From contig CAMNFR010000002.1 of NCBI GenBank assembly GCA_946537305.1, positions 48,564 to 112,563 of the forward strand: 64,000 nucleotides of DNA, read 5' to 3'. Positions 16,971 through 43,724 of the stretch are shown here, one piece after another; positions within the stretch are counted from its first letter, which is position 1, and each line of letters begins with the position of its first letter. Below the pieces are notes generated by a model, which worked only from the letters and a program-made list of their open reading frames with translations, made no database searches and was not told where the DNA came from. The DNA is from an uncultured Lachnospiraceae bacterium. Lineage in GTDB: Bacteria > Bacillota > Clostridia > Lachnospirales > Lachnospiraceae. The translations under genes were made by a program, and so were the position numbers.

Positions 16971-16998
16971 AAACGATAGGGTGAAAGGGGGAGAAAAC

Positions 16999-19452
16999 AT
17001 GGCATTGACACAGGAAAACCGGAGGAAGCTGGAAGACTTAGCTTTGGAGAAGGGGGGACTTTTCCCGCAGGCGGAGCTGTTCGGCGATATGCCTGTGCTT
17101 TTTGTAGGACTGGGCGGCTTGGGAGTGCGCACGCTGCAGGTGATCCGGCGGAATATACAAGGGAGAGAAGGCGCCGCCGAGAAGGCTTTCTTTTTAGCCA
17201 TTGACAGCGATGAACATGATCTCCAGGCATATCGCGATGGCATTCATGTCGCAGATGCCGGAATGAATGAGGTGATATCCATATTTGCGCCTGGTATTGT
17301 ACCAGGGCTTTTCGGCCCCAATGGGGCTGGTGGCATACGGAAAAACGGACGTTTATTGCTGACAGCAGGCCACAAATATGAAGCAATACAGAATTATCTG
17401 AGCAGATGTGTTATGCGGATTGAATCTATACTGCATGGGATGGGGAAATTTCAGGTCATCCTAATTTCCGGTACGGGCGGCGGAACGGGCGGCGGAATTG
17501 TGGTCGATGTGGCTTATATAATCCGAAATGCAATGATGCATCTGGGAGTAGCAGCGGATCGCTATCTGCTGCAAGGGTTTCTGTTCCTGCCGGATGTAAT
17601 GTCCGGAATACCAGGGCTGATGATGGATTATGCGCAGCGGAAGATGATTGCCGCAAACGGTTATGCTGCGCTGAAAGAAATAGATTACTACCTACAGCCG
17701 CTCGCGGAACGTGAGCCTTATGTGCTGGAATTGCCGGGGCAGACGGTGACTTCAGAGGCAGCTGTACTGGACCAGTGCAAGCTCATCTCTGGGAAGACGG
17801 CTGCAGGGAACTTTCGCAGTACAGATCGGACCGTGCAGATGGTCGGGGATTGTCTGGCAGAACTAACGGCGGAAATCCATATGCCGCCCGGAAACGAAAT
17901 GCCGCTGCAATATTTGTCCGGGAATGGCTATCAAATGCTTCTCTTCGAAAAAAAGGAGATACCGGAGCGGGAAGTGCTCACGTGGACTGCGAGTCAGATC
18001 TGGCAGCAAATGATGGAGGCGTGGAGTGTCCAGGGACATCAACTGGAGCAGGCAGGGCGGCATGTGCTGGCAGGAATCCTTATGAACGACGGTCCCTCCC
18101 TTATGAACTTTGCCTTGCATAGGCTGGGGTATGATGGACAGGCTTTTCGGGCGGAGGCTATAGAGGCAGAGCCGTTTCCTACACGGGCACAACTGTTAGA
18201 TGATCCGGAATATGGTTTTAGACGGGCGGCAGAAGTGGCGGAAGTATGGAGAGGACGTATCCTGAAAAGGCTGCCTGAGCTGGAAACGGATATTCGAACG
18301 ATCATCCGGGAGAGGCTGAACAACTGCCTGGATAGGGGACCGTTCTTCGTGGCCGCCTTGCTGGATGGGAATCGTTCACACCTGTATAATAGAGGAGAAC
18401 GAGCCTGGCCGGGAATCATTCATTTCTTGAACGTGATGCGGGAATCAATGAATGAGATGGCACAGAACGCGATGCGTCGTTTTGAAATTGAGCGGCACCA
18501 GTTGCCGGAGCTGGCTGTCCGGGCATCTTCTCCTTTCGCCGGCAGAGCAGTAAAAAGTGCGTATATGGAGGAATGCTGCAATATAGCAGAGGGCCTCATC
18601 ATATATGAACTTCTGTCACGGGTCATGATCGATGTGCTGGGGCGTCTACAGAGAGAGCTGACAGGGGATCTAATAGTTAGGTGGGAGCCATATCAGGAGA
18701 TTGTTGAATATGTGGAACGAATTCTGAAGGATGATGCGGAAGCGGTTTACAACGCAGGTGTCGGAATACCGAATGAGGACGCTTTGATTGATCTGCCGGA
18801 GGCAACCGGTCAGCGGATCCGAGCGGTTCTGCACGAAATAGCAAATCCGAATCAGGTGAAATTGATTTCACATTGTATCAGTAATTCCATGCGCCTTCAT
18901 CCGGGTTGGTGGGGGGATGTCCGGGAAAATGAGGAATTCCGGGCAGCCTCTGAGATACGGGATATATTCCAGGGATATCTCCAGGGTTCATTGGAACCTC
19001 AGTTGCCGGAGAAGCTGATTATGATCTCCCGGTTTCCCGGTCATCTTGATGTCCAACAGGTAAATAACGAGTGGAACATGAACGGAACTGTTCGGCACAA
19101 TGCGCTGCAGCAGGCTGCTGATGAGATCATAGCTGCTTTTTCAGGAACGATGGCTGCGCTGCTGCCGGGTGGAGTAACACAGAAAACGTTATTCCTGGCG
19201 CCGGCGAGCACACCGGATCTTACGTCAAGAGTGACTGTGCTGCTGCCGCCGGATACCCTGAGAGGGGTGTATATGGGCGGTGCGCCAAGATATACATTGG
19301 CAGGCATACGTTATCCGGTTGCATTTTCGACGATTCCGGATATCGAAGAATACGCAAGGTTCTATCAGCAGGAACCGACAATGCCTGGGCTTCATCTGGA
19401 TGAAGAGACTCAGCGCTGGCACGATTATCATCCTTCGGGGATGTCAGTATAG
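16999..19452 (+). CDS. Tubulin/FtsZ-superfamily GTPase-like protein (Tubulin_2 / FtsZl-1-like), paralog 1
   Basis: I prefer ATG 16999 (SD aaggggga) over GTG 16981. VLFVGLGGLGVRTL is a T1-like loop. ISGTGGGTGGGIVVD (17470-17496) matches the GGGTG[ST]G signature. NGYAALKEIDYY is shared with paralog 2, and both start MAL..(6)..KL..L.L.KGG. Confidence 0.8.
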   Translation: MALTQENRRKLEDLALEKGGLFPQAELFGDMPVLFVGLGGLGVRTLQVIRRNIQGREGAAEKAFFLAIDSDEHDLQAYRDGIHVADAGMNEVISIFAPGIVPGLFGPNGAGGIRKNGRLLLTAGHKYEAIQNYLSRCVMRIESILHGMGKFQVILISGTGGGTGGGIVVDVAYIIRNAMMHLGVAADRYLLQGFLFLPDVMSGIPGLMMDYAQRKMIAANGYAALKEIDYYLQPLAEREPYVLELPGQTVTSEAAVLDQCKLISGKTAAGNFRSTDRTVQMVGDCLAELTAEIHMPPGNEMPLQYLSGNGYQMLLFEKKEIPEREVLTWTASQIWQQMMEAWSVQGHQLEQAGRHVLAGILMNDGPSLMNFALHRLGYDGQAFRAEAIEAEPFPTRAQLLDDPEYGFRRAAEVAEVWRGRILKRLPELETDIRTIIRERLNNCLDRGPFFVAALLDGNRSHLYNRGERAWPGIIHFLNVMRESMNEMAQNAMRRFEIERHQLPELAVRASSPFAGRAVKSAYMEECCNIAEGLIIYELLSRVMIDVLGRLQRELTGDLIVRWEPYQEIVEYVERILKDDAEAVYNAGVGIPNEDALIDLPEATGQRIRAVLHEIANPNQVKLISHCISNSMRLHPGWWGDVRENEEFRAASEIRDIFQGYLQGSLEPQLPEKLIMISRFPGHLDVQQVNNEWNMNGTVRHNALQQAADEIIAAFSGTMAALLPGGVTQKTLFLAPASTPDLTSRVTVLLPPDTLRGVYMGGAPRYTLAGIRYPVAFSTIPDIEEYARFYQQEPTMPGLHLDEETQRWHDYHPSGMSV

Positions 19453-27366: not shown

Positions 27367-28908
27367 ATGGATAATATCAGACAGGTAAAGTATAATAAGA
27401 TCAATTGCACCGGATGCGGTGACTTTACAGAGGCGGATCTGGTAGCGTTTGATTTGGGGAAAGTATTCGCGGATGCTGTACGGGAAACAGCGGTGGACCC
27501 TGTCTGGGAGCCGCTGGCACAGTTGGATCTCCGCTTCTACTACACGATGCGGGATATTTGCCAGGAACTGGAATACCGGAGGCACCCGAACCTGCCTACG
27601 GAGCTGACGCTGGAGGTGCGGGATGTGACCCGTCAGATGGAATTTTTGATGGATGATTATCCCTTCGCGCAGATGAGCCGGGAATCCCGAAATTCCATGC
27701 AGTACAACAAGCTCTTTGAGCAGGTCCGCTCTTCCTTTGATTCGATCTCGGAGAAAGCGGAGGCATTGGAGGCGTTGATCCGGGCACTGACTACGTATTC
27801 CGGAGAGACAGTCATTCTGAAAGTGCCGATCTTTATATCGCTGGGATCTGATGAGGATGGAAACGAGATGATCCATGGCCTGGATTATTTCATTAACGGC
27901 GAAAAAAGAAGTATCCGGGAAAGAGTCTGCCCGTCCTGCGGCATGCCGATGGACAGTCAGGCGGGCTACCGGAACGAATTTATTATCGGGCTGGCAGGAT
28001 TGCCGCGGGTCGGCAAATCGGCTTATCTGGCCTCGTTGGTGCATCAGCTGAAGAAACTGCCGCAGGATGGATTTATTCATGTCAAACAGAATGACAGCGA
28101 AAGCCTGGAGAAATTTGAAAAGGATATCGTAGCGCCGTATGAGCGGGGAGAGACGATTCAGAAGACAGCGGTAGAGCACGAGGATGCCATTCCGCTGGTC
28201 TATCTGCCACTCCAGATCGGAAGCCGTGAATATAACTTTATATTTGTAGATATGCCGGGCGAGGTGTACGGAAGTATGGATAGTTCCGGCCTGGATTTTA
28301 TCAGCAACCGCCGTTCCATTCTGAAGAATGCGGATGTTATCTGGTGCTGTATAGAACCGTCCATGGTAGATCCGAAATATACCAATAAGAATGTGCCTGC
28401 CAAAACACAGGATGCCTCCAGACAGCTTTCCAGTCTGATCAACATCCTGAACATGATCTATATTACCAAGATTCCTTCCGGTATCATACTGACACAGTCA
28501 GATCTTGTGGATAGCGAGTACCGCCTCTTCCGGCCGGAGGTTTCGGTCATGGATGAATATGTTCTGGAGGACCATTCGCTGGATCTTTTGCGGATGAATG
28601 ATTTTGTGGAAGATACCCGCCGGTTCATCGATAAAATGAGCAATTTCCGGCTGTCTATCGAAGGAACGTTTGAAGGATTTTCCATGTTTGGGGTGGCTTC
28701 CTACGGCTTTGATGTCAGTGATAAGGTGCTGCTTTCCAATAAGACGATCCAGCCGTCCATGGTAGAGCTTCCTTTCCTGTGGACCCTGGCGAAGCTGGGA
28801 CTGCTGAAGGTAACAAAGGCAACCCAGACCAAGACGCTGTTGGGCAAAGAAAAGTGGAAGCTGGAGGAAGTGGAAGATGAGAACGCCCTTTACATGCAGG
28901 AAGACTGA
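27367..28908 (+). CDS. Zinc-ribbon-containing P-loop GTPase-like protein, paralog A
   Basis: 513 aa. CTGCG ... CPSCG are split by a ~170-aa insert. Walker A is GLAGLPRVGKS (27988-28020), G3-like is FVDMPGE, and the G4 position reads ILTQSD. The C-terminal PFLWTLAKLGLL is shared with paralog B. Confidence 0.8.
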   Translation: MDNIRQVKYNKINCTGCGDFTEADLVAFDLGKVFADAVRETAVDPVWEPLAQLDLRFYYTMRDICQELEYRRHPNLPTELTLEVRDVTRQMEFLMDDYPFAQMSRESRNSMQYNKLFEQVRSSFDSISEKAEALEALIRALTTYSGETVILKVPIFISLGSDEDGNEMIHGLDYFINGEKRSIRERVCPSCGMPMDSQAGYRNEFIIGLAGLPRVGKSAYLASLVHQLKKLPQDGFIHVKQNDSESLEKFEKDIVAPYERGETIQKTAVEHEDAIPLVYLPLQIGSREYNFIFVDMPGEVYGSMDSSGLDFISNRRSILKNADVIWCCIEPSMVDPKYTNKNVPAKTQDASRQLSSLINILNMIYITKIPSGIILTQSDLVDSEYRLFRPEVSVMDEYVLEDHSLDLLRMNDFVEDTRRFIDKMSNFRLSIEGTFEGFSMFGVASYGFDVSDKVLLSNKTIQPSMVELPFLWTLAKLGLLKVTKATQTKTLLGKEKWKLEEVEDENALYMQED

Positions 28909-28932
28909 TAAGAGCGGTAAAATGGCGGGAGG

Positions 28933-29178
28933 ATGCAGACAATGAAAACATTGGAAGAAGAGATCAAAGCCCAGAAAATAGAAACTATACGAAAAGACGG
29001 GATGTTCCGCCTGCTTGGAATCGTGGTGGTGGTGGCAGCAGTATATTTTGCCATACAGTTTGTTCATGCAGATTTTAAGATACTGACGTTCCTGAATCCG
29101 TGGGCGAGCGCAGTTATGCAGCTGATCGGCGATCTGCTGTATCCCATCAGTGATCTGCTGCGTGAACTGATACCGTAA
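28933..29178 (+). CDS. Small single-TM protein between the two GTPase genes
   Basis: 81-aa ORF with one hydrophobic segment (FRLLGIVVVVAAVYFAIQF). The start is ambiguous (ATG 28933 or 28942). Confidence 0.5.
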   Translation: MQTMKTLEEEIKAQKIETIRKDGMFRLLGIVVVVAAVYFAIQFVHADFKILTFLNPWASAVMQLIGDLLYPISDLLRELIP

Positions 29179-29250
29179 CACCGTGCGGCAGACTGCAAAA
29201 TAATTAGCATGATATAAAGTGTAACATAATAACTGTCGGGAGGAAAGAAT

Positions 29251-31002
29251 ATGAGCGATAACGGCGGCAGTAATGCCAAGAAGATGGAGTTTCACAGAGT
29301 CCACTGCCCGCGCTGCGGAAGAACCATGCTCGCCAATGAGCTGGCATTTGATTTCGGAGAAATCATAAATGTGGCACTGGAGAAGGCGAAGAACCGGAAA
29401 TTCGGGCATAATGAGGAATGGTACGATCTGACCAATCTGAACCTCTGCCTGTACCTGGACCTGCGGGATCTGATGACTTCATATGGTCTCTCTCAGGCTC
29501 CGAACGGAACGTACCAGGGCATGTTTACCTTTACCACCAAGGATCTGGGCGATCAGCTTCTGCGTCTTGCCGATTCCGCCAACCCCAACATGTCCATTGC
29601 AATCCTGGGCTCCAGCAATAATCTGATTGAATATGAAAAGCTGACCCGCTTTATGAGCAAATCCAGCGATGTGGATGTGATGGAACTGGCAGAGCGTATT
29701 CAGGAACTTGCCATTCGGATTCAGAAGAACCCCAACGCCGTGATCGCCAGTTTTCATGTAACAGTCAATCTGCAGAAGGATGATCGGGGAAATTATTTTG
29801 CCAACCGACTGCTTATAAAATTTGATGACGGTCAGCTGCAGAATGTGACACGCTTTATCTGCAAGGGTGAAAAAGGAGCGCCTTGCGGTAAAGTGCTCTA
29901 CGGCCACGCGGGTCAGTTTAAAGAGATTATTATTGGCCTGGCCGGTACAGCCCGTGTTGGTAAGACCGCGTACCTGGCGTCGCTGCTGGCCAGCATTCTG
30001 CGGCAGGGCAACGGTATACAGAAGCTGGGACACGATCAGAATGTGATCACTAATATTGCTTATGTAGATGAGGCATATGACCGGTTCAAGAAGGACCTGC
30101 TGGATCCGTATGCCAACTGTACCAAGATTACGAAGACCCAGTACATCTTTGATAAGGTGGGAGATACCGAGGCCATTTCCCTCTTCTCCCTGACCTTTGC
30201 CATCAACAACCGGAAAAAATATATTTTTACCTTCATCGATATGCCCGGTGAAGTATACGATGACGGAGCAGAAGGCGCTAACGTGGTCATCAATAACCGC
30301 CAGATCATCTCAGATGCCAGCATGATCTGGCTGTGCATCGCGCCGGCACAGATTGCAGGCGGGGCGGTAGTGGCCGGCGGAGACCAGGTAAATACAGATC
30401 TGGGCAACGCCTTTGCCAACCTGGAAAAGACCATGCAGGCAATCAACCGCTCAAGACAGATCCCGACCGCAGTGCTGATCACCTGCAGCGATCTGATCGA
30501 AGATAAATACGAGCTGTTTGATTCTACATTCAATCCTTTTGCTTCACAGGAAAATCCGATCCGTACCATGGATAGCAAGAATAAAAAGACGCCCTGGGTC
30601 AGCGAGGCCGGGGCACTGTTCTACACCAACATGGAATGGTTCATTCGGAATGCGTTCTCTTACCTGAAGACCAATCCGGGACTGCCCGCCAGTATCGAAA
30701 ATATCTTTGGCGGATTTACCCCCTTTGCGGTGGCTTCCTACGGAAAGCAGATCGATAACCCGCTGGCGGTAAAGGCCGGATTTGACATTCCTACGCCTTC
30801 TATGATCGAGGGGCCGTTCCTTTGGACGCTGGGTATTCTGGGACTGATTCCGGTCTGCAAGGAGGAATTGGTCACACGTACCCGCCGGGTCAGAAAAGGC
30901 CTCTTTGGGCACCGGGATGAGACGTATCAGGAAACAGAGATCGTAAATGTTGAGGGAAGAGAGCGCAGACGTCTCTTCTACTATTCGGGACAGGAGGATT
31001 GA
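29251..31002 (+). CDS. Zinc-ribbon-containing P-loop GTPase-like protein, paralog B
   Basis: 583 aa. It starts with an N-terminal CPRCG and the second half-ribbon is degenerate (CKGEKGAPCG). Walker A is GLAGTARVGKT (29935-29967), G3-like is FIDMPGE, and the G4 position reads LITCSD. LAFDFGE and PFLWTLGILGLI are conserved with paralog A. Confidence 0.8.
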   Translation: MSDNGGSNAKKMEFHRVHCPRCGRTMLANELAFDFGEIINVALEKAKNRKFGHNEEWYDLTNLNLCLYLDLRDLMTSYGLSQAPNGTYQGMFTFTTKDLGDQLLRLADSANPNMSIAILGSSNNLIEYEKLTRFMSKSSDVDVMELAERIQELAIRIQKNPNAVIASFHVTVNLQKDDRGNYFANRLLIKFDDGQLQNVTRFICKGEKGAPCGKVLYGHAGQFKEIIIGLAGTARVGKTAYLASLLASILRQGNGIQKLGHDQNVITNIAYVDEAYDRFKKDLLDPYANCTKITKTQYIFDKVGDTEAISLFSLTFAINNRKKYIFTFIDMPGEVYDDGAEGANVVINNRQIISDASMIWLCIAPAQIAGGAVVAGGDQVNTDLGNAFANLEKTMQAINRSRQIPTAVLITCSDLIEDKYELFDSTFNPFASQENPIRTMDSKNKKTPWVSEAGALFYTNMEWFIRNAFSYLKTNPGLPASIENIFGGFTPFAVASYGKQIDNPLAVKAGFDIPTPSMIEGPFLWTLGILGLIPVCKEELVTRTRRVRKGLFGHRDETYQETEIVNVEGRERRRLFYYSGQED

Positions 31003-31003: not shown

Positions 31004-33262
31004 ATGCAGCTTTTGTATGGAAATGACGGCGTCAATTACAGGGTGATCGATAAATCCGCCGAAATGACGGACGGCGTGCAGAAAACGCTGCTGGGATCCT
31101 ACTCCCGCTACGATTTTGTGACGGATCCGAAGGTCTATTCCTCCGTGGCGCAGGAGCCGGAAGCGATAACCTATGTTTCCACTAACCTGGACAATCAGCT
31201 GAAAAGCGACCAGGTGGTGGTCTGCAAAATGGGGCACATGCGTAATTTTTCCTCTCCCAGCTATTATTTCCACGGTCTGGTGAAGGAAGTCCCTGCGGAT
31301 TATTATAAGAAGGACTTTTTTGAACTTTTCGGCTATCAGTTCATTCCGGATGTGGAGGCCAATTCCGCACATTACAGCGGGGGAACGGTGGATGGATATC
31401 AGTTTCCCGTACAGCCGGTCAACCAGAAAGCATTGACCGACGAACAGCTGATCGTGATTCTGGCAAGCTTTCTGTCCAATGACAAAAAGGGACAGAAAAC
31501 AAAGATCCTGTGCGATGCTTCCGGGGATGATTATAACCGTCGCAGCCGCGAGATCCTGGCGTCGATCTATCATTATCTCCCCTATGAACTTCGCAAACGC
31601 TATGGCTTCAAATCTTACAGCCAGGATGAGAAGAATCTTCCGGCGCGTGTTGCCTTTGTGGTTTTCCCGAAGGAAGAAGTACACGATGTGACTGGATTTG
31701 TCACCCTGCAGGAATCCCGGGGAGACATAGCGCATTCTGTGGAGCGCGAATACCTTGATTACGCAGCCTATCTGGTGGAAAAACTGGATGATTCACAGCG
31801 TACGGAACATTTTGAGACCATGTCCAAGCTGGCGAGTAACGGATATCTCCGGATCAAGGACTGCGTGGATTATTACAACAACCTGAAGAACTGGTCCAAC
31901 GGGACGCAGGAAGCGCTGCTGCCGGACTGGATTCAGTATATCGATCAGAACAGCTTCCGCAAAGGGCCGCTCTATGAGATGCTGCTGAAGATCATTGTCG
32001 CTAAGGTGGATAACGCATATTACAATGATTACCTGTTTGATCAGACATTGAGGCTGTATCAGGAGAACGTATACAATCTGTCTCCCCAGGCGGCCAAGAC
32101 CATGCGCTTCGCGGACTGCCTGGATGAGATCTTTATCGAACCTGCCCGGTTCCATGAGTGGTATCAGGAGCAGCTGCAGGCAAAGATCAATATGCTTCGA
32201 CCGGAACAGAAGGAATCTCCGGTCTATATGGCAGGCTTTTATGAGGAAGAGATCCGCGCCTTGGAACAGGTAGATATCATGAGCGAGGAGCTGAAGGAGC
32301 TTCTTCAGACAGAGGTGCAGAATCTTCGGGCAAAGATCCGCAGCAACGCGGCCAATGTGGAAGAGCAGAAGGACCGGGAGGTTGAGGAACTGCATCGCCA
32401 GGTCAGCAAGATCGGCAGAGTGGAGGATCTGGTGTCGATGGTCGAGATCCTGCGCCGCAATATTCAGTTTGCTGAAAATAAAGAAGTGCTCACGGCGAAT
32501 GTGGAAGAGTGGCTGGCGGAACATATCCCGGACAGAATCACTTCCGAAAGCGAGTTGCGGATCTGGAAAGAACAGGTGGAGAAGCTTGGTGGAAATATTT
32601 CCGCGGAAATGCAGGAAAACATCCTGAGGGAGCTGGCGAGAGAAGAACAGCTTCAGATCCAGGCGAGAGAGTCTCGCAAATGTGTCATCCGGCCGGGGGA
32701 GGTCCTGAGATCCTATCGGAACCTGGTGGAATATCTGGCTAAAGGCGTGCTGCAGCCAGAGGATAAGGTGATAGCTGAGATCGGGAAAAGAGCACCGAGT
32801 GAATATAAAGCTTCTACCATGTTGAAAATGCTTAGCTTTATCCTCTATCCGGAGGATGAGTCCCAGGGCAGTGTCTCGATTGCATGGAAGCGCGTGTTCC
32901 TGGAAGAGAAGCTGATGACGGCGGAACATGCTGAATATCTGCTGAAGGATCCGGAAGCAGAGGAGGAGTTTGTTAAAAGAGTAGTGCACTTCTTCCTGAA
33001 GGAAGATTCCGTCAGGATCTCCGGCATCTATCTGGCAAGACTGATTCAGCGGTATCATCCCGAGCTGAATGCCATGTTCCGAAAACTCTATGAAAAGGGA
33101 GAGGACGAGGAGTACTTCTTCTCGGATGAACTGAAAACGCTGTCAGCATCTGCCCCCAAACGGAGCAACTGGGCTTATGAGACAGAGTCGGAGCCCCAGG
33201 AGGATCATTCCAAACAAGGAAAGAAAGGATCACTGGGGGGCCTGTTCGGAAGGAAATGGTAA
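31004..33262 (+). CDS. Large hypothetical protein (coiled-coil-rich C-terminal half)
   Basis: I prefer ATG 31004 (SD ggacaggagg; 1 nt after the upstream stop) over the ORF-track start 30947. That gives 752 aa with no recognised family. The N-terminus MQLLYGNDGVNYRVIDKS is worth testing against GTPase-associated (GAP1-type) N-domains. Confidence 0.7.
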   Translation: MQLLYGNDGVNYRVIDKSAEMTDGVQKTLLGSYSRYDFVTDPKVYSSVAQEPEAITYVSTNLDNQLKSDQVVVCKMGHMRNFSSPSYYFHGLVKEVPADYYKKDFFELFGYQFIPDVEANSAHYSGGTVDGYQFPVQPVNQKALTDEQLIVILASFLSNDKKGQKTKILCDASGDDYNRRSREILASIYHYLPYELRKRYGFKSYSQDEKNLPARVAFVVFPKEEVHDVTGFVTLQESRGDIAHSVEREYLDYAAYLVEKLDDSQRTEHFETMSKLASNGYLRIKDCVDYYNNLKNWSNGTQEALLPDWIQYIDQNSFRKGPLYEMLLKIIVAKVDNAYYNDYLFDQTLRLYQENVYNLSPQAAKTMRFADCLDEIFIEPARFHEWYQEQLQAKINMLRPEQKESPVYMAGFYEEEIRALEQVDIMSEELKELLQTEVQNLRAKIRSNAANVEEQKDREVEELHRQVSKIGRVEDLVSMVEILRRNIQFAENKEVLTANVEEWLAEHIPDRITSESELRIWKEQVEKLGGNISAEMQENILRELAREEQLQIQARESRKCVIRPGEVLRSYRNLVEYLAKGVLQPEDKVIAEIGKRAPSEYKASTMLKMLSFILYPEDESQGSVSIAWKRVFLEEKLMTAEHAEYLLKDPEAEEEFVKRVVHFFLKEDSVRISGIYLARLIQRYHPELNAMFRKLYEKGEDEEYFFSDELKTLSASAPKRSNWAYETESEPQEDHSKQGKKGSLGGLFGRKW

Positions 33263-33265: not shown

Positions 33266-34405
33266 ATGAGGTATAAATATGTTTCACACCTGACAGATCT
33301 GAAGGATCTGAAACACATAGAGTGGTTCGTTCTTCACAGTCAGGAATATGAATTTGCAACAGACCGGGCCAGAACGCTCCGGGATCGCCTGCAGAAAAAT
33401 ATTCATAAGAAAAACATTCTGTACTCGGAGATCGTCACGGACTATGAGGAGCTGGTGCGGCATTTTGACAATGATCTTTACCATTACCAGTTTGAACTGA
33501 CCGGTGAGGACCCGGACAAATGGCTGTTCAGCAATATTCCGGTAAACTATTTTGTGCCTGCCGAGGATAAGGATGGAGGCCAGTACACGGTTCCCTATCA
33601 GTATATCGTGGAAAACCGCATCAATTATGATTTTGTGGAAATGAGCAAACGTCACACGCAGCTGCTCTCGGACAGCCAGAAACGGGCCGAAAGTACCTTC
33701 CAGGCGGTGCAGGATCATTACATGAGATACTGGGTAGGCGGCGGTGTGCGGGATGCGCTGGACCGCTATCAGGGGATTCGTTACGGAAGTGATTATCACA
33801 TCCTGCGCACCGTACTCCTCTTTGTGCTCTACAACATCCTGTTGGGCATTGCCCTGCAGGAATCTCAGTTCATCGGGATCCTTACACATCCCTGGCAGCT
33901 GATATCCACAGAGGCAACGGCACAATTTGCGCCGTATAATCTGTTTACCGGACACAGAGTTCTTGGGATCATCGCGTTCCTTCTGGTGCTGTATTTTGTC
34001 TTTATGGATGCGGTCTATGCCTACGGCATTTACTACATGATCTATATGAAGCAGAAATACGGTATGGTAAAGAAGTATCACGAAGAAGTGCTCCGGCTGT
34101 TGGAACCCTTCCAGAAAGACTTTGAACAGTGCCGAAAGGGAATCACCGGTCCCGTCAGTAAAATCAGGAACAGGGACAGCGTGTATATCCCTCTGATCCG
34201 GAAGGTCAGCCGCGGATATGATTTTACCTCCGGGAAAATGGCACCGGCAGAAAAGGGAGAAACGCCGCAGCCACTGCTGCAGTCTGTGCGGGTGCCTGTT
34301 CCGGGATTTTACACCAGGCCGATTCATAAGTGCCTGATCGGGCTGGTGATCGCGCTGATCTTTATCACCGCGATATGCAATCCGTATAATATGATACTTT
34401 TCTGA
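33266..34405 (+). CDS. Membrane protein, no recognised family
   Basis: 379 aa, starting 3 nt after the upstream stop. The soluble N-terminal half is followed by at least 3 hydrophobic segments. Confidence 0.7.
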   Translation: MRYKYVSHLTDLKDLKHIEWFVLHSQEYEFATDRARTLRDRLQKNIHKKNILYSEIVTDYEELVRHFDNDLYHYQFELTGEDPDKWLFSNIPVNYFVPAEDKDGGQYTVPYQYIVENRINYDFVEMSKRHTQLLSDSQKRAESTFQAVQDHYMRYWVGGGVRDALDRYQGIRYGSDYHILRTVLLFVLYNILLGIALQESQFIGILTHPWQLISTEATAQFAPYNLFTGHRVLGIIAFLLVLYFVFMDAVYAYGIYYMIYMKQKYGMVKKYHEEVLRLLEPFQKDFEQCRKGITGPVSKIRNRDSVYIPLIRKVSRGYDFTSGKMAPAEKGETPQPLLQSVRVPVPGFYTRPIHKCLIGLVIALIFITAICNPYNMILF

Positions 34406-34460: not shown

Positions 34461-36722
34461 ATGAAGAAGCGAATTCTGATATTGGGAATGGTCCTGGCCA
34501 TGCTTGGCTCCGTTTTCAGCTTCCCGACGTCCAATGTTCGCGCGGAAGATGAAAACAAAAATAAGAAGCTGGATCTGGTCATGGTTCTGGATAAATCCGG
34601 TTCCATGAAGGGAAACGACCCCAATGGTTTAATGAAGACAGCGGCCAATATGCTGACGGCCATGATGCCCGCCAAATCCGGGCGCGTGGGCGTGGTTGCC
34701 TTTAACATTAAATCGGAACAGGTGGTAGGCCTGACCGAGCTGACCGACGTGACGTCTGTGAATGATATCATGGGCAAGGTCAGCACCATCAAGTATAAAG
34801 GGGATACCAACATCGGCGACGCTGTTTCCGATGCAGTGGATATGTTCGACTTAAACGATGACCACGTGCACGCGGTGCTGGTGCTCTCCGACGGCAAACC
34901 GGATTTCGGTCTGGATAAGAACGCGGAGCAGGCCAGTGATGAACGGCTGAACGATACGCTGGCCAAGATCAAGGGTAAGGAGTGCTACATCTATGCCCTG
35001 GGATTCGGCAAGGACATGGCGGATACCAATGATGTTCCGTACAAAAAGCTTTCAAGTATTGTCACTTCCCCGGAGACCATATCCACGGAAACCGATCCCG
35101 CAAAGATTCACGAATTCTTTGTGAAGATGCTGCTGGATCTGATCGGGGCCAAGATCCCGGAGATCTATGACAATAAGATCCCTATCGAGCCGAATGTAAA
35201 GGAAGCCAATATTTACATCAGCTCCGCGGAGGACATGACGGATGTGACAGTGGGACTGACGGATCCCTCCGGGAATAGCATTCCCATGGAAAACAGTGAA
35301 AAGGTGTGGTTCTTTAAGGACAGCTATTCTGCTGTGATCAAGCTGTTTGACCCCGCGCCGGGGGAATACGTCATCAGTACGTCCCGTGAGGATATCAACA
35401 TCACGGTCGGCTATGTGCCGTTCTATGATTATACGCTTCGCAGTGAGATCGTGGACGAGACCGGCGTACCGGTGGAGAAACTGGATAACGGCAAGACAGT
35501 GGAGATCCGCACCTGCCTCAGCCAGGAGGAGCAGGACGTGACCGAGCCGATGGCTTACGATAATGTGACTGCTATGGCTACGGTAACGGCGAAGGACACC
35601 GGCGAGAGCGTAGAAGTGCCGCTGACATTCCGGGATGGGATGCTGCGCGGCAATATGAGCTTTGAGCGTGTGGCCGCCTACACGGTGGATATCCGCGTGG
35701 AGTCAGAGACCTTCGACCTGAAGGATCAGCTTACGGTGGAGACCAACCAGCGCGGTTTTGGCTGGGCACCCGGACAGACCGGCGTGGATCTGATCGAAAA
35801 GAAGATCCTGGATAAGACCCTGAAAAAAGAAGTGACCCTGCTGGTGGATAATCAGGAGCTGATGGGGGCTATTGAAGATCCCGACGGCGTGGGCGTAGCT
35901 CTGGATCAGGTGACTTCCAGTGATGAGGAAAAGGTTACGGCGGAGATCACCAATGACGGAATACTGCTGACCGGTAAAAAGTGGGGGTCTTCTCTGATTA
36001 CCGTTACGTACCGGGATGGTCTGGGCAACACGCTGGAGACTTCCTTCACCACCAGCGTGAAAGATAAGATGCTGATCGCGTTCTTTGCCGCGCTGCCGGT
36101 GCTGCTGGGCCTGATCGCCGCGCTGGTCGTTTATCTGATCATGCGGCAGTCCCGTATGATCCGCGGAGATTTTGAGATCACCCGTGTGACGATTGACCGC
36201 GGTGACAGCGATGTATCCATCATCTCCATTCCCAAGAGTTACAAGGGCAAGACCTTTGTGGGGCGGAAGAAGACGCTGGGCAACGGCGTGTCCCGATACG
36301 CACAGGATGTATATTCTACAGACGGCACCCTGCTGCAGGTACAGCAGCTGTACCAGATGTTCTCCAACACCCAGTCCGAGATGCGCCAGAACCTGGATAC
36401 CTTCCAGTTTATCGGCAGCTACCTGGGCCGCAATGGCTGCAGCATCAAGGTGAAGAAGGGATCTCCTGTGTCCCTGTCCAATAACCGCAGCTACCGCCAG
36501 GCTGTCAAGATGAAGTGGCCGCAGAAGGCGACGTTCAAGGTGTTCACCAAGGATGCTTCCGGGACGGAGATCTGCGTGGAAGGCCGCTACGCCATGGGCC
36601 GCAAGGCCGGTGCCTCCGCCGCGAAGGGCGGAAAAGGAGGAAGAGGCGGACGTCAGAATGCCGCTCCCACGCCGCCGCCTGTACAGAATAACAACGATTT
36701 TGACGAGGATTTCTTCAGTTAA
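34461..36722 (+). CDS. Secreted/type-I membrane vWA-domain protein with cytoplasmic tail
   Basis: 753 aa. It has a signal peptide (MKKRILILGMVLAMLGSVFSF..VRA) and a vWA MIDAS motif (LDLVMVLDKSGSMKGND). A single TM (MLIAFFAALPVLLGLIAALVVYLIM) lies near residue ~540. A ~190-aa tail follows, ending in a Gly/Lys-rich stretch plus NNNDFDEDFFS. Confidence 0.85.
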   Translation: MKKRILILGMVLAMLGSVFSFPTSNVRAEDENKNKKLDLVMVLDKSGSMKGNDPNGLMKTAANMLTAMMPAKSGRVGVVAFNIKSEQVVGLTELTDVTSVNDIMGKVSTIKYKGDTNIGDAVSDAVDMFDLNDDHVHAVLVLSDGKPDFGLDKNAEQASDERLNDTLAKIKGKECYIYALGFGKDMADTNDVPYKKLSSIVTSPETISTETDPAKIHEFFVKMLLDLIGAKIPEIYDNKIPIEPNVKEANIYISSAEDMTDVTVGLTDPSGNSIPMENSEKVWFFKDSYSAVIKLFDPAPGEYVISTSREDINITVGYVPFYDYTLRSEIVDETGVPVEKLDNGKTVEIRTCLSQEEQDVTEPMAYDNVTAMATVTAKDTGESVEVPLTFRDGMLRGNMSFERVAAYTVDIRVESETFDLKDQLTVETNQRGFGWAPGQTGVDLIEKKILDKTLKKEVTLLVDNQELMGAIEDPDGVGVALDQVTSSDEEKVTAEITNDGILLTGKKWGSSLITVTYRDGLGNTLETSFTTSVKDKMLIAFFAALPVLLGLIAALVVYLIMRQSRMIRGDFEITRVTIDRGDSDVSIISIPKSYKGKTFVGRKKTLGNGVSRYAQDVYSTDGTLLQVQQLYQMFSNTQSEMRQNLDTFQFIGSYLGRNGCSIKVKKGSPVSLSNNRSYRQAVKMKWPQKATFKVFTKDASGTEICVEGRYAMGRKAGASAAKGGKGGRGGRQNAAPTPPPVQNNNDFDEDFFS

Positions 36723-36818: not shown

Positions 36819-39800
36819 ATGGCTTTAAGTCCGCTGAAAAAAGAAAAGCTGGCGCAGCTGGAGCTGAATAAGGGAGGTGTGGCGTTCGTATCGCAGAAAT
36901 CCTCTGTGACGCCGAATCCCACGGTGATCATCAGTCTGGGCGGCCTGGGTGGAAAGACCCTGAATGCCCTGAAGGGCAAATTTGTGCGTGAGATCGGGGA
37001 GAGCGATCATATTTATTTCCGAATGATCGATACGTCTCTTCCGGACATGGATGATCTGTGTAAGGTAAAGTCGGACGGAACCATGAATACTTCTCCGAAC
37101 GCGCATCTGGAACAGATAGAGGCGGTGCCGATCTTTGATCCTGCGATCGCAAATATCCTGAAGGCCGGCTCCATTCCGCCCAACATCAAAAACTGGCTGA
37201 ATCCGGCGCTGATCGGTACGGAACTGGATAACTCCGGTGCCCAGCAGATCCGCCAGATCGGCCGCGCGATGCTGACCAACGACACCGTGTATTTCAATGT
37301 CCGCACCAAGCTGAGCTCTGCAATTCTGAGTGCCATCGGCCAGATGCCGTTTGGCGGCAATGTGGACGTCATCCTGATCGCCGGTGTATCCGGCGGTACC
37401 GGCAGCGGCACGGTGATCGACCTCAGCTATATGATACATGACATCTTCAAATCTGCGGGAAGCACCAGCTATAAGCTGGCGGGCTATATCTTTACCCCGG
37501 ATGCTCAGTTCATGATTCCGCAGATCAAGAATAACCCTACGACGCTGCTGAATCTGAAGAAGAACGGATATGCGGCCCTGAAGGAAATCGATTACTTCAT
37601 GAATATCCAGGAGACACAGAGTGTCTATAAGCTGGAGCTCGGCTCTTCGGCGGTCACCTCCACCAAGAACATCTTCAGCAGCTGCACGCTGGTCTCCGGC
37701 TATGCCTCCGGCGGCGGCATGAACGATACCGATGTGACTATCGGCCGTCTGACCGATCAGCTGATGGATATGCTGACGGATATTACCATCACGGACAAGG
37801 GCGGCATGCCGCAGCAGATGTCCGCCTCCATTTTGAGCAATGAGAACGCCAACCTGAATTCCTGGTTCGGACTTCATCCGGCGCGCCGGATCTATCACCG
37901 CTATGCTTCTTACAAATATCAGGTGCTGGGGTACAATTCCATCGTGATTCCCCGGGATGAGATCCTTGCGTACTGCGTGAACAAAATCTATGCCGGCGTG
38001 CTGCAGGAGTTCCAGAATTTCTCGCTGGTGAACAAGCAGATGATGCAGAAGGTGTTCGCGCAGACGAATGTGATCAACCCGGATACCTTTGTGCAGTTTG
38101 CGACAACCATCAACGCGAATAACCCGATCAACCGCACGCTGGTCATGGACGGCGGCTACACCAAGTCTATGATCAAAAATGATCCCATGATCGCCTATAA
38201 CGATGCGGTGGATCTGGCGCATGCGGAGCGCGTGAAAATCAATGGCGGCTTCCAGGCCATGGTGGAGGATCATGTTTATAAGGCACTGTCCCAGGAAGTG
38301 GATAAGATCTTCAATCAGTTTGGTCCGTACGTGGCCATGAAGGCCATTGAGCATAAGCACACGGAACTGAGCGTGGGAGATCCCAAGGAACCCTTCCCCG
38401 GTATTATTGAAATGCTGGAGCGGCAGAGCGAAAAGCTGATGGCCCGCGCCAATGCGGCGAACAACGCATTTAACAATGGCGGGCATCAGCAGATCCAGGC
38501 GGCGGCCAATGAGGCTATGGGCGGTCTGTTCGGGACCAACCACGCCGCGGTGAACAACTATGTGGAGATCTGCTGCAACCAGGCGGTGACCTCTCAGATT
38601 GATGTGGTCCTGTTTAAGACCCTGTCCGATGCGCTCTACAATGTGGCGGTCCGCATGAACAAGCTGAATTCCGACCTCTTTGAGGTGTATACCAGCATCC
38701 TGACCGAAATCCAGAAAATCCTGAACCAGGACGGCCAGTACTTCTCGAATTCCAATATGTCCCAGGTGGGCAATAACCGCTACTTCTCCATCGATATCAT
38801 TAAGAGCGGCAAGGGGAAAGCTGACCGGCTGGAAAAATACCTCGATAGCTTTATCTCTACAGTATCCGTACAGGAGCTGGCGCAGAACTTCATTAAGAAG
38901 ATGCGTGATAACCGTGACAAGTGGGTGGCCCAGAACAGCGAAAATGATTTCGACGTGGTGGCCGAGGTCCGCGATCTGATGGATGACTGCTTGAATTCCA
39001 ACAAGATGACCACGGATATTGTAGAAAAATTTGTGACGGTCGCCTACAGCACCAAGGACATGAAGCCGGAAGAACTGGATGCCATCTGGGATGACAACAC
39101 GCCGACCGGTCCTAAGATGCAGGCACTGGCCTCCGCCGCGAATGAGATCTACCAGCAGCTCTCCAACGGAGCGCAGCCCATGGCGAATTCCACGGGTCAG
39201 ATCCCGCTGAACAGCTTTGCTGGACAGCTGTTTATCAGTACGCTGAAGGATACGCCGCAGCTGACAAATATCCTGAATAATCTGGTCAAGGGGGCGCAGG
39301 GATTTACGCCGGCGACCAGTGATTCCAAGAATAAATTCATCTTTACCCGTCAGTATATGAGCCTTCCCATGTATATTCTGTTGGGCATGGGTGAGTACAA
39401 CCAGGTATACGTGGAAAACCCGAGCGCGGGACGCCACATGGACGAGAACAACCAGAACTGGGGCCGGTTCCCGAACCCCTACACCATCGATTCCGTGGCG
39501 ATCGATCTGGCGACTGCCCAGCGGCCGGCAGAGGATATCGAATCGTATCCGGATTACAAGGTGCTGACCGATGTGAAGGCCAAAGCCACGGACGGCGTAA
39601 AGAAGTATGGGTTCATCAATGTGCAGGTGGATGCCACCGGTATGGGACATATGTATCTGAATGACATTACAAATACGCCGGCGGATATGGAAGCCTTTAA
39701 AGAGGGATTCTACAATGCGCTGATGAAAAAGAAGAATCTGGATGTCATTGAGTACATGAAGCAGAACGGGTTTATTATCAATCCGATTGAGGTGACACGC

Positions 39801-40481
39801 GGTCAGACCGATGTGGATCTCTCTCTGCTGGATTTTGCCGATGCCGCACCGGCGGATCTGTCCGGAATGTATAAGGATATCCCCGTGAACATCCCGGATG
39901 TATACAAGTGGCTGAGAAAATCCATCAAATACATGGACATTCTGGATAAGGACACGGCTATCTTTGAAGAATTGCAGGAAGTCATTGACAGGGCAGAAAT
40001 AAATCGCCATGCCAAATCAAAATTCATTGATGATGTGGAAACCTTTGCGTTTGCGCTTCGCACCGGCATGGTGAAGCAGAACGAAAAGAACCCGAAGATC
40101 TGGAATTACATGGACGGCAAGGAGCCGGTGGCCGTGAACTTTGGCCGCGCCAAAGCGTTTGACCGGAAGTATTTCCTGTACCACGTGTTCGTGAGCTTCC
40201 AGCAATTGGATGATAAGCGGCTGCAGGCATATAACGCACAGGCGGGCAAGAAGATTGACGAAGGCGCGGAGATCGATTACGAATTCCTGAGCGACCACAT
40301 CAGCGAGATGCTTTCCGACAGCGAGCTGGGGGATGTATTCAACAGTGAGGTCGTGAATGAAGAAGCTGAGGAACAGGGCGTCACGGATAACTATCAGGTC
40401 ACGGACCGAGCGGAAGACAAGGGCAACCCCTACAAGGTGCTGAAGCGCTTCTATGAACTGATCCAGACAAGCTTCGAATAA
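36819..40481 (+). CDS. Tubulin/FtsZ-superfamily GTPase-like protein (Tubulin_2 / FtsZl-1-like), paralog 2
   Basis: 1220 aa with a strong SD (gaaaggaga). It carries VIISLGGLGGKTL, ILIAGVSGGTGSGTVIDL (37383-37412; GGTGSG tubulin signature) and KKNGYAALKEIDYFM. The ~900-aa C-terminal extension has no family I recognise. Confidence 0.85.
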   Translation: MALSPLKKEKLAQLELNKGGVAFVSQKSSVTPNPTVIISLGGLGGKTLNALKGKFVREIGESDHIYFRMIDTSLPDMDDLCKVKSDGTMNTSPNAHLEQIEAVPIFDPAIANILKAGSIPPNIKNWLNPALIGTELDNSGAQQIRQIGRAMLTNDTVYFNVRTKLSSAILSAIGQMPFGGNVDVILIAGVSGGTGSGTVIDLSYMIHDIFKSAGSTSYKLAGYIFTPDAQFMIPQIKNNPTTLLNLKKNGYAALKEIDYFMNIQETQSVYKLELGSSAVTSTKNIFSSCTLVSGYASGGGMNDTDVTIGRLTDQLMDMLTDITITDKGGMPQQMSASILSNENANLNSWFGLHPARRIYHRYASYKYQVLGYNSIVIPRDEILAYCVNKIYAGVLQEFQNFSLVNKQMMQKVFAQTNVINPDTFVQFATTINANNPINRTLVMDGGYTKSMIKNDPMIAYNDAVDLAHAERVKINGGFQAMVEDHVYKALSQEVDKIFNQFGPYVAMKAIEHKHTELSVGDPKEPFPGIIEMLERQSEKLMARANAANNAFNNGGHQQIQAAANEAMGGLFGTNHAAVNNYVEICCNQAVTSQIDVVLFKTLSDALYNVAVRMNKLNSDLFEVYTSILTEIQKILNQDGQYFSNSNMSQVGNNRYFSIDIIKSGKGKADRLEKYLDSFISTVSVQELAQNFIKKMRDNRDKWVAQNSENDFDVVAEVRDLMDDCLNSNKMTTDIVEKFVTVAYSTKDMKPEELDAIWDDNTPTGPKMQALASAANEIYQQLSNGAQPMANSTGQIPLNSFAGQLFISTLKDTPQLTNILNNLVKGAQGFTPATSDSKNKFIFTRQYMSLPMYILLGMGEYNQVYVENPSAGRHMDENNQNWGRFPNPYTIDSVAIDLATAQRPAEDIESYPDYKVLTDVKAKATDGVKKYGFINVQVDATGMGHMYLNDITNTPADMEAFKEGFYNALMKKKNLDVIEYMKQNGFIINPIEVTRGQTDVDLSLLDFADAAPADLSGMYKDIPVNIPDVYKWLRKSIKYMDILDKDTAIFEELQEVIDRAEINRHAKSKFIDDVETFAFALRTGMVKQNEKNPKIWNYMDGKEPVAVNFGRAKAFDRKYFLYHVFVSFQQLDDKRLQAYNAQAGKKIDEGAEIDYEFLSDHISEMLSDSELGDVFNSEVVNEEAEEQGVTDNYQVTDRAEDKGNPYKVLKRFYELIQTSFE

Positions 40482-42308: not shown

Positions 42309-43724
42309 ATGGCAGCCAGAGGTACCAGAAATACAACCAATTCCCTGAATAAAGGTGTACTGGTCATCAGTGCGGCGGCTGGCGTCGTGGGCAGCTTTGT
42401 GTCCGGTCTGATTTACCGGATCATCAGCCCGATGATGTGGAGTCCGCTCGCTGTGGGCATCAGCTTTATGATCTTCGCAGCTGTGCTGATCGGGATTATG
42501 GTGGTGGTGAACCTGCTGAATGATAATCTGGGATTTCATGTCAGCAAATTTCATGACGGCGGGCAGATCATCCTTACACTCATCGGCTTTATTCTGGGAG
42601 CGCTGATTTTGGGGACGCTCTTTGAATTCATCTATGAGATGAACTTCTTTGAGGGAAAGAAGGGGTATCAGGAGCCGACTTCCTATGTATTCCTGATCGA
42701 CAATTCAGGATCCATGGACAGCAGTGATCCCGAAAATGTCCGCTACGCCGCTATAACTCAGATTATCAGCGGCAAAGAAGACAGTTTCCCGTACGCGGTA
42801 TATGGATTCAGCAACGGGGTAGAGGTTATGCGGGAGCTGGCACCTATATCTGCCGGCAACAATGAATTGACCGGGATAGCCTCCGGCGGCACCGAAATCC
42901 GCGGTACGCTCACCCGTCTGTACGAGGAGTATGAGAATGGGCTGAAGGACCAGCTGGGCGAAGCCCCCAAGTTCCTGCTTCTTTCAGACGGCTATGCCAC
43001 GGATATCGGCTGGTTTAGTTCTATCAATAAGATTCTGAAGGAATACGCCAAAACAAATATAGAGATTTCTACGGTAGGTCTGGGGGAAGCAGATGATGAA
43101 TTGATGCAGCAGATCGCGGATGATACCGGCGGCGTGTATATCAGTGTCAACGATGTGAACCAGCTGGAACAGTCCATGTCGCAGGCAATCTCCAAATCCG
43201 GCGCGAATAAATATGCCAGAACGCTGTATACCCTGCGAAATGTTCCTTCGCTGAACTTCCTGTATGCTCTGATGCGTATTGTGTTTACGGCCATTCTGGG
43301 CGTGGGCATTTCCTGCTCTATGCTGTTTGCTACCGGCAAGGGAGATGACAGCGATAAGATCGTTACGACCTCCATCATCACCGGTGTGCTTGCAGGCTTG
43401 GCATTGGAACTTCTGATCAACGGTATCCCGCTTCCGCCGAATCTTGTACGTTACCTGTACTTTATTCTGGTAGCGCTTACCTTTATTACTGAGATGGGCT
43501 TTGGCGGAAACGGCAGAGGCGCAAAGTATAAGGATGCGGACGATATGCTGGGAGGCGGCGGACGCATGCAGATGGGCGGGAAACAGAACCTGCGCAATAC
43601 CGGCGCCGGAAATACCGGCGGAGATATGGATGATCTGATGGGCGGCGGCACATCCGGGGGACGATCCGGCGGTGCATCTTCCGGTGGTTCATCCTATGAC
43701 GATGATTTCTTCAATGACTTCTAG
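42309..43724 (+). CDS. Polytopic membrane vWA-domain protein with Gly-rich tail
   Basis: 471 aa. About 3 TM segments come first, then the vWA MIDAS motif (YVFLIDNSGSMDSSDPEN), then about 3 more TM segments. The tail is Gly-rich and ends SSYDDDFFNDF. Confidence 0.85.
   Translation: MAARGTRNTTNSLNKGVLVISAAAGVVGSFVSGLIYRIISPMMWSPLAVGISFMIFAAVLIGIMVVVNLLNDNLGFHVSKFHDGGQIILTLIGFILGALILGTLFEFIYEMNFFEGKKGYQEPTSYVFLIDNSGSMDSSDPENVRYAAITQIISGKEDSFPYAVYGFSNGVEVMRELAPISAGNNELTGIASGGTEIRGTLTRLYEEYENGLKDQLGEAPKFLLLSDGYATDIGWFSSINKILKEYAKTNIEISTVGLGEADDELMQQIADDTGGVYISVNDVNQLEQSMSQAISKSGANKYARTLYTLRNVPSLNFLYALMRIVFTAILGVGISCSMLFATGKGDDSDKIVTTSIITGVLAGLALELLINGIPLPPNLVRYLYFILVALTFITEMGFGGNGRGAKYKDADDMLGGGGRMQMGGKQNLRNTGAGNTGGDMDDLMGGGTSGGRSGGASSGGSSYDDDFFNDF

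Follow-up and report, generated by a model that had tools for sequence, protein, structure and literature searches.

The window analysed in this study is a stretch of 64,000 nucleotides (nt) from an uncultured Lachnospiraceae bacterium (assembly GCA_946537305.1, contig CAMNFR010000002.1, positions 48,564 to 112,563 of the forward strand), and our subject is a tandem pair of GTPase genes within it, together with the short gene between them and the gene cassette to which they belong. Three co-directional, closely packed open reading frames (ORFs) were found at this site, encoding GTPase A, a small protein with one transmembrane (TM) helix, here called TM81, and GTPase B:

27367..28908 (+), GTPase A, 513 amino acids (aa), DO-GTPase2 family (PF19993, AlphaFold2 (AF2) model, Foldseek)
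28942..29178 (+), TM81, one-TM protein, 78 aa (likely start) or 81 aa (start at 28933)
29005-29064 (+), hydrophobic helix of TM81, FRLLGIVVVVAAVYFAIQFV, Kyte-Doolittle value 2.34 over 19 aa
29251..31002 (+), GTPase B, 583 aa, DO-GTPase2 family (PF19993, AF2 model, Foldseek)

An earlier note on this DNA, made from the letters alone, had described A and B as tandem paralogues, and this description was borne out. The coordinates of the ORFs were verified, BLASTP aligned the two proteins across essentially their full length (29% identity, E 2e-57, far above chance), and the gene calls on an independent metagenome contig of the same sequence gave products of 513, 78, 583 and 752 aa. Judged by these sequence comparisons, A and B are real, anciently duplicated full-length paralogues. 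The motifs quoted in the note were all present, except that the segment after the N-terminal CxxC reads AFDLGK in A rather than ending in GE; in B it reads AFDFGE. Internal promoters and terminators between the genes were counted no more often than in the shuffled background. The G+C content ranged from ~48 to 61% over the 2-kb windows of the whole stretch and was ~49-52% inside the GTPase cassette.

Searches with Pfam showed that both proteins match the DO-GTPase2 family (PF19993) above its gathering cutoff of 27 bits, A with 34.7 bits and B, marginally, with 27.4 bits. The same family is precomputed on 15 orthologues of B (B-type proteins), and it was found in 10 out of 10 sampled distant relatives retrieved with a profile of A and B. 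The matches of A and B to DO-GTPase1, MMR_HSR1 and GTP_EFTU were weaker and sub-threshold. AF2 models were built from a 48-sequence alignment; the model of A had a predicted local distance difference test score (pLDDT) of 89 and a predicted template modelling score (pTM) of 0.87, and the model of B had a pLDDT of 84.6 and a pTM of 0.84. The order of elements in both models is canonical (beta1/P-loop/alpha1 ... beta5-G4 ... beta6-G5-alpha5). When the models were compared with PDB by Foldseek, the 50 listed matches of each were all TRAFAC-class P-loop NTPases and nearly all GTPases, including aEF1-alpha/EF-Tu/Hbs1, Der, EngB, Era, G-alpha, Rho/Cdc42, Arl13B, septin and YcjX, with E values as low as 5e-6, yet with low template modelling scores. 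The ATP-using EHD stood at rank 19 in the list of B and was its sole dynamin-superfamily entry among the 50 listed.

Assignment to a KAP, AAA or other non-GTPase P-loop class was rejected by Pfam and by the fold search. The AAA_14 match of B was sub-threshold (19.8 against 27 bits), and the sequence matches to F1 beta in PDB (E ~0.08) covered only the P-loop. A sequence search of PDB returned no relative better than E 0.06, with the similarity confined to the P-loop, and NCBIfam gave no family for A and only sub-threshold noise for B (the best being a CxxC family, E 0.009). A and B are TRAFAC-type GTPases, as the earlier note had held; of the families it had named for comparison, DO-GTPase2 is the one to which they belong, and they have no close solved relative. 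An exhaustive search of representative proteins (clustered at 50% identity) with the A and B profile retrieved 2,998 family members at E<=1e-3, and a profile search through a word-indexed set of 5.8 billion proteins added no further relatives.

The catalytic motifs of the two proteins were located by alignment, and the alpha-5 helix of A by alignment together with the AF2 model:

27997-28020 (+), P-loop of A, GLPRVGKS, aa 211-218
28249-28263 (+), G3 of A, DMPGE, aa 295-299
28489-28503 (+), G4 of A, LTQSD, aa 375-379
28696-28707 (+), ASYG motif of A, aa 444-447
28753-28803 (+), alpha-5 of A, PSMVELPFLWTLAKLGL, aa 463-479
29944-29967 (+), P-loop of B, GTARVGKT, aa 232-239
30238-30252 (+), G3 of B, DMPGE, aa 330-334
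30478-30492 (+), G4 of B, ITCSD, aa 410-414
30733-30744 (+), ASYG motif of B, aa 495-498
30796-30846 (+), alpha-5 of B, PSMIEGPFLWTLGILGL, aa 516-532, followed by a C-terminal beta-hairpin and a polar tail

From its N-terminus, A comprises a C14xxC17 beta-hairpin, the AFD strand (with an invariant F28), an alpha/beta inserted domain, a second Cys knuckle, beta1 with the P-loop, alpha1, the switch-I Thr (T267), beta3-DMPGE, beta5-LTQSD, beta6-ASYG, alpha-5 and a C-terminal beta-hairpin. B is built alike, with T296 as its switch-I Thr. The inserted domain of A spans approximately aa 30-183, and its residues L50, L55, Y58, D63 and D162 are nearly invariant. Among 48 homologues, the second Cys pair, the P-loop Gly and Lys, the switch-I Thr, the G3 Asp and Gly, the G4 Asp and a C-terminal Trp are invariant; in A these include T267 (assigned to G2), D295 and G298 (G3), D379 (G4) and W472. 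Motifs G1 to G4 are intact in both copies, and ASYG occupies the G5 position, where SAK lies in classical GTPases. Because both proteins keep every catalytic residue, neither looks like a pseudo-enzyme. The Glu that ends DMPGE in A and B, the Walker-B Glu named as a family hallmark (Kaur et al., 2020; PMC7159879), is widely kept, D-x-[PAS]-G-E being found in 107 of 113 representatives with a recognisable P-loop. The third-position Arg of the P-loop (GxxRxGK[ST]) occurs in 31 of 37 A-type and 14 of 15 B-type proteins and, among wider members, in 54 of 104.

The earlier note had called the G4 motif non-canonical and the base specificity uncertain. The deviation is real, with the Lys replaced by Q in A (TQSD) and by C in B (TCSD), but the doubt about the base was overstated. 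The family norm at this position is [TNS]K[STP]D, the nearby single-copy relatives have TKSD, and the clade of this locus has T[QCRM]SD. Since the Asp is invariant and the relatives carry TKSD, the deviation is a clade-specific loss of the Lys and not of the guanine-reading Asp. For a G4 motif that keeps the Asp and lacks the Lys, the expectation is that guanine nucleotides are selected, bound more weakly and exchanged faster.

The note had also taken the hydrophobic PFLWTL..LGL segment for a free tail able to bind a membrane or a partner. The AF2 models place PFLWTL instead in a short helix at the alpha-5 position (pLDDT ~95), after ASYG and before the beta-hairpin, and a P-h-h-W motif was found in 109 of 135 wider family members. 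The TM scan predicted no TM segment in A or B. A role of this ordered, family-wide helix as a membrane-binding tail is unlikely, and a TM or membrane anchor at this site is unsupported.

Two pairs of cysteines are found in each protein, in the N-terminal region and ahead of the P-loop, respectively (positions from the alignment):

27406-27420 (+), knuckle 1 of A, C14TGC (C14-C17)
27928-27942 (+), knuckle 2 of A, C188PSCG, 23 residues ahead of the P-loop
29305-29319 (+), knuckle 1 of B, C19PRCG
29860-29889 (+), knuckle 2 of B, C204-x7-C212G

The second half-ribbon, which the earlier note had read as CPSCG in A and as degenerate in B, is indeed CPSCG in A; in B it is a conserved C-x7-C, kept in 13 of 15 B-type sequences, the other two having CPNCG. 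C204 and C212 of B align with C188 and C191 of A in invariant columns. Nor is the split arrangement a peculiarity of this locus: an N-terminal CxxC together with a Cys pair before the P-loop occurs in 146 of 154 relatives with a locatable P-loop, and the spacing between the pairs is 170-181 aa in A and B and 49-246 residues across the family, with a median of 170. No further Cys is conserved in A or B. In the monomer AF2 models (pTM 0.84-0.87), both knuckle regions are beta-hairpins with pLDDT 85-94. Because exactly four Cys are co-conserved and both pairs lie in knuckle-type hairpins modelled at that confidence, they most likely form one predicted intramolecular zinc site.

Analysis of related loci was based on eleven complete loci of the clade, namely the window and 10 others, among them loci of Thomasclavelia spiroformis An567 and of several Erysipelotrichaceae metagenome-assembled genomes (MAGs). 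The A-type homologues have 505-542 aa and share 39-61% identity with A, the closest being 61% identical, and the B-type homologues have 555-578 aa and share 27-30% identity with A. Since the closest A homologue is no nearer than this and the related loci of named organisms belong to Thomasclavelia/Erysipelotrichaceae, the window probably stems from another lineage. The order A, an ORF of 77-86 aa, B and a GAP1-like gene was found in 11 of 11 loci, and where the contigs extend further, genes for a three-TM protein, a vWA protein and a Tubulin_2 protein come next, in that order. All seven genes, from A to the tubulin-like gene, are strictly co-inherited, with operon-like packing.

The earlier note had asked whether both GTPase copies and the small TM gene are always kept; they are in all eleven clade loci, and they are not in distant ones. 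A and the small TM gene were found only in an Erysipelotrichaceae-centred clade, whereas loci in Intestinibacter bartlettii, Lachnospiraceae and Eubacteriales have only one GTPase, a B-like one encoded directly upstream of GAP1, with neither A nor a small ORF. In a rough, unbootstrapped neighbour-joining tree, B groups with these single-copy GTPases and A forms a clade of its own. Because the distant loci have a single B-like GTPase and the tree groups B with them, it looks, as far as sequence relationships indicate, as though A and the small TM gene had joined an older B-GAP1 core as a module. B is also the better conserved of the two (54-58% against 39-50% identity to Thomasclavelia-type loci), and the identity among the GAP1-like proteins is ~38-45%.

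The neighbourhood of the cassette varies between loci. Loci L005 and L006 (coordinates 1-8800), on otherwise identical contigs, carry an identical GTPase cassette with different upstream DNA: one has two integrases of the phage type there, the other Mob_Pre, an EcoRI-type methylase, GmrSD/HNH and TnpV. The site of the cassette is therefore mobile or prone to recombination. In an Erysipelotrichaceae MAG (L001/L002), a ToxN-family toxin gene at 338-859 lies ~9 kb upstream of the cassette, which hints at a defence-island neighbourhood. The same cassette thus adjoins different mobile or defence genes, which fits an accessory, mobile system.

TM81 has a polar N-terminus, a single hydrophobic helix and an amphipathic C-terminus. 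The one-TM ORF between the paralogues was correctly recognised in the earlier note, but its length of 81 aa has to be revised: the start is most likely the fourth codon, at 28942, because a GGGAGG-9 nt-ATG arrangement, the gene callers and the orthologues all agree on it. The ORFs in the A-B gaps of the eleven loci share no more than ~30% identity between distant loci, and they align almost without gaps, with the MxSLK start, the hydrophobic helix, an F..IP..G motif and the amphipathic tail kept. This pattern marks TM81, at the level of sequence, as a genuine, fast-evolving gene. The idea that it is the split-off C-terminal anchor of a longer family GTPase was rejected, since neither 250 family proteins nor the single-GTPase loci gave a significant match to a hidden Markov model (HMM) built from the 11 orthologues. 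Other two-GTPase GAP1-N2 systems have a GTPase that itself carries fused TM helices (Kaur et al., 2020; PMC7159879); here TM81 is the obvious candidate for bringing the soluble pair to the membrane.

The genes that accompany the pair in the window are as follows:

31004..33262 (+), GAP1-like protein, 752 aa, polar C-terminal extension; GAP1-M (PF20014) at 20.2 bits (cutoff 24)
33266..34405 (+), conserved cassette member of 379 aa; three TM helices predicted (TM scan)
34461..36722 (+), vWA protein 1, 753 aa; Pfam VWA 4e-14; syntenic in related loci
36819..40481 (+), tubulin-like protein 2, 1220 aa, Tubulin_2 (PF13809) 2e-49, long C-terminal region
42309..43724 (+), vWA protein 2, 471 aa, multi-TM (five hydrophobic segments); Pfam VWA 3e-12
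16981..19452 (+), tubulin-like protein 1, 823 aa, Tubulin_2 (PF13809) 2e-33; upstream arm
13056..16970 (+), STAND-type NTPase, 1304 aa; N-terminal DUF4062, AAA_22, AAA_16 and weak nSTAND1 (Pfam)

The GAP1-like gene, which always lies directly downstream of the B-type GTPase gene, starts at 31004 (AGGAGG-7 nt-ATG), 1 nt past the stop of B, a start supported by the ribosome-binding site, the orthologues and public gene calls; the longest ORF, from 30947, would overlap B by 56 nt. An identical 752-aa product is present in public collections. The 1-nt junction with B suggests translational coupling. GAP1-M was matched by 8 of 11 GAP1-like orthologues, with a best E of 2e-5, the protein in the window remaining below the cutoff. 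Orthologues of the 379-aa protein, with 31-40% identity, were found in the eight A-type loci and the B-first locus L016, these being the loci that extend past GAP1, and tubulin-like protein 2 has syntenic orthologues at 51-58% identity. The layout of vWA protein 1 consists of a signal or TM segment, an extracytoplasmic vWA domain, a beta-rich region with a weak Big_2 match (E 0.075) between the vWA domain and the TM helix, a TM helix at aa 539-557 and a cytoplasmic tail. Further membrane proteins follow vWA protein 2, and the TM scan found many TM proteins in the cassette, none of them A or B. The STAND NTPase lies directly upstream of the shorter Tubulin_2 gene and gave weak PADLOC matches to mad8/Avs-like models. 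This STAND and tubulin-1 arm is outside the cassette common to all related loci, and the STAND gene is absent upstream of A in L001/2 and L005/6. Because ordinary metabolic genes form the flanks of the window, we regard the system as an island of ~40 kb.

The earlier note had stated that paired "double GTPases" with Zn ribbons occur in predicted conflict systems and that a "distinct GTPase" accompanies FtsZl1/vWA loci. Both statements were correct (Kaur, Burroughs, Iyer and Aravind, eLife 2020, PMC7159879; Makarova and Koonin, Biol Direct 2010, PMC2875224). According to Kaur et al., paired paralogues occur in 38% of the systems, the GTPases were proposed to act as dimers, and the Firmicutes theme comprises two tubulin genes with C-terminal coiled-coil, two vWA genes (one multi-TM, one fused to YtkA), FNIII repeats and, directly downstream of a DO-GTPase, a GAP1 protein composed of GAP1-N2, GAP1-M and GAP1-C. 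The locus in the window shares with this theme two paralogous TRAFAC GTPases with the Walker-B Glu and N-terminal Cys knuckles, Firmicutes hosts, a GAP1-like protein with a polar C-terminal extension just downstream, two genes for tubulin-domain proteins that extend into long C-terminal regions, a pair of vWA genes, of which one is multi-TM, and numerous TM components. It differs in that neither GTPase has TM helices, a separate 78-aa one-TM protein lying between them instead, and in that the G4 motif lacks the Lys. Pfam HMMs detected no GAP1-N2 or GAP1-C domain in the GAP1-like protein, no FNIII component, and no YtkA in vWA protein 1 (E<=1) or vWA protein 2 (E<=0.01). Moreover, the Cys pairs here stand a domain of ~170 aa apart, whereas the paper describes two compact ribbons. 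The FtsZl1-vWA-GTPase operons have in common with this locus a Tubulin_2/FtsZ-like gene, vWA, many membrane proteins and a diverged P-loop GTPase that has both Walker motifs (A and B) as well as a Cys-rich region; they differ by a TxKD-type signature, where A has Q and B has C for the Lys, and by OmpA and protein kinase components, which are absent here.

A more distant likeness is to GBP1 and atlastin, in which Arg48 and Arg77, respectively, act as internal arginine fingers on G-domain dimerisation, and in which G4 is reduced to 'RD' without the Lys (PMC5084822). The third-position Arg in the P-loop of A and B lies at the position of these arginines, and the Walker-B Glu lies at the position of Ras Gln61. 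Because of these two placements, an activation of hydrolysis by dimerisation, with catalytic residues supplied in cis, is suggested by analogy. Besides the P-loop Arg and a G4 that keeps the Asp and lacks the canonical Lys, A and B would share with GBP1 and atlastin, as a prediction, action as a pair near membranes in an immunity-like context. Homology is, however, not detectable beyond the generic G domain: A and B have no helical stalk, and the residue after G3 is Glu in them and hydrophobic in the dynamin superfamily. The Pfam GBP and dynamin families matched neither A nor B, and the 50 listed Foldseek matches of A held no GBP-, atlastin- or dynamin-type protein, the top ranks being translation factors, Era/EngB, G-alpha and Rho.

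Taken as a whole, the locus makes it probable that a Firmicutes-type tubulin/vWA "GTPase-centric" system has A, B and the GAP1-like protein as its nucleotide-dependent switch. The system is assigned to this type because the locus combines Tubulin_2 and vWA genes, two of each, with a GAP1-like gene whose product has a polar tail. In such a switch, both G domains would bind GTP with modest affinity, since the G4 Lys is lost and the Asp kept; A and B would form a heterodimer, as the earlier note and Kaur et al. also proposed, in contact across the nucleotide sites; and the nucleotide state would be passed to the GAP1-like protein, which in turn would gate the assembly of the tubulin-like/coiled-coil proteins and the membrane vWA proteins at the membrane. 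The four Cys (CxxC plus the C-x2/7-C 23 residues before the P-loop) would form one zinc site that clamps the inserted domain of ~170 aa onto the G domain. TM81, gained along with copy A, most likely holds the soluble pair at the membrane as a tether or scaffold and would replace the fused TM helices that one GTPase bears in other two-GTPase systems. Combining all these elements, one may picture an ancestral one-GTPase switch rebuilt as an asymmetric, membrane-tethered heterodimer by the addition of A and a dedicated 78-aa TM micro-protein, with GBP/atlastin-like low-affinity binding, dimer-triggered hydrolysis (cis P-loop Arg and Walker-B Glu) and a single zinc clamp on an inserted sensor domain, licensing tubulin polymerisation against invaders; that the whole of this picture holds is rather unlikely.

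Several observations weigh against the switch as proposed. The GAP1-like protein reaches only a sub-threshold match to GAP1-M and none to GAP1-N2 or GAP1-C. The distant loci with one GTPase mean that a heterodimer is not intrinsic to the system. The P-loop Arg is not universal, being carried by roughly half of the wider family, and by Foldseek A and B do not fall near GBP or dynamin, so that the comparison with GBP1 is an analogy only. PADLOC models matched neither A, B, TM81, the GAP1-like protein, the tubulins nor vWA protein 1, the matches within the island being limited to the HerA-like and STAND proteins, and a full-text literature search returned no experimental study of any DO-GTPase and no solved structure. 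There are two other accounts, neither of which we consider probable. In one, A and B form no heterodimer: B would be the ancestral switch partner of GAP1, acting as a homodimer or monomer, and A with its small TM partner would be a separately acting accessory module that might, e.g., serve as a sensor, recruit to the membrane or inhibit B. The lone B-like GTPases upstream of GAP1 in the Intestinibacter, Lachnospiraceae and Eubacteriales loci, the stronger conservation of B and the separate clade of A in the tree speak for it, but A retains all catalytic motifs in the same domain architecture as B, the genes for A, the small ORF and B are never apart in the 11 loci, and paired paralogues are recurrent in the family.

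The other account, with a similarly modest chance, is that the cassette is not directed against invaders and serves as a housekeeping or developmental machine for membrane remodelling or the cytoskeleton, with the GTPases regulating filament or vesicle dynamics. Makarova and Koonin proposed membrane remodelling for the FtsZl1/vWA/GTPase operons (PMC2875224), the cassette is rich in membrane proteins, and neither a classical toxin effector in the core cassette nor a PADLOC match for the GTPases, GAP1 or the tubulins was detected. A patchy distribution stands against such a role, as do the change of adjoining genes from integrases to Mob/methylase/GmrSD between L005 and L006 and the ToxN of L001/2, the setting of the ~40-kb island, with its STAND NTPase and HerA-like ATPase, between metabolic genes, and the fast evolution of components such as the small ORF and GAP1. 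As to the cysteines, it is doubtful that the pairs are remnants of two separate incomplete ribbons or an intermolecular zinc hook holding the dimer. A few short family members do carry four Cys pairs as two compact ribbons, e.g., P0168 (C6/C22, C63/C75), and Kaur et al. (2020) speak of "two N-terminal ZnRs" for GAP1-N2-type GTPases (PMC7159879), by which they may mean these short members; exactly two co-conserved knuckle-type pairs are the norm, however, A and B have no other conserved Cys, and the confident hairpins of the monomer models suggest packing within one chain.

The type of system has already been described in silico, and the locus is a well-preserved example that adds detail and corrections. 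Modestly new are the clade-specific architecture in which two soluble DO-GTPase2 paralogues are accompanied by a TM micro-protein, the loss of the G4 Lys in this clade, the splitting of the Cys pairs throughout the family, with a conserved inserted domain, and the GBP-like P-loop Arg. Since the DO-GTPase/GAP1/tubulin systems form a large predicted class of bacterial conflict systems with ~3,000 representative GTPases, this compact, fully intact example from a gut Firmicutes, with its two confidently modelled GTPases, is a good place to start experiments. It would lend itself to studies of the communication between a GTPase pair and a bacterial tubulin, of the reality of a split-Cys zinc clamp and of an independent bacterial origin of a GBP-like cis-Arg mechanism.

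Further genes of the island lie on the same strand:

20284-25224 (+), 1,646-aa protein
25221-25934 (+), 237-aa protein, upstream of A
25974-27350 (+), 458-aa protein, upstream of A
45302-47989, 48046-49695, 49505-50809 and 52548-54236 (+), four genes at the downstream end of the island

The first ~650 residues of the 1,646-aa protein are nearly pure acidic repeats (IEDIPEE / ELEEQ units); after them come an HExxH-type motif (IAHELRHAYQ) and a segment that may be HD-like, and Pfam gave no match. L003/L004 have a large homologue of this gene upstream of A, and L001/2 and L005/6 have none there. The two genes directly upstream of A belong to no Pfam family, and the 458-aa product contains a low-complexity linker of the type PEPEPxP. 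In L003/L004, and not in the other loci, the place directly upstream of A is taken by genes of comparable length (237 and 396 aa). The four genes at the downstream end encode a HerA/DUF87-type ATPase (PADLOC HerA, mad8), a protein combining zinc ribbon, TM and YARHG, and two proteins with a transglutaminase core.

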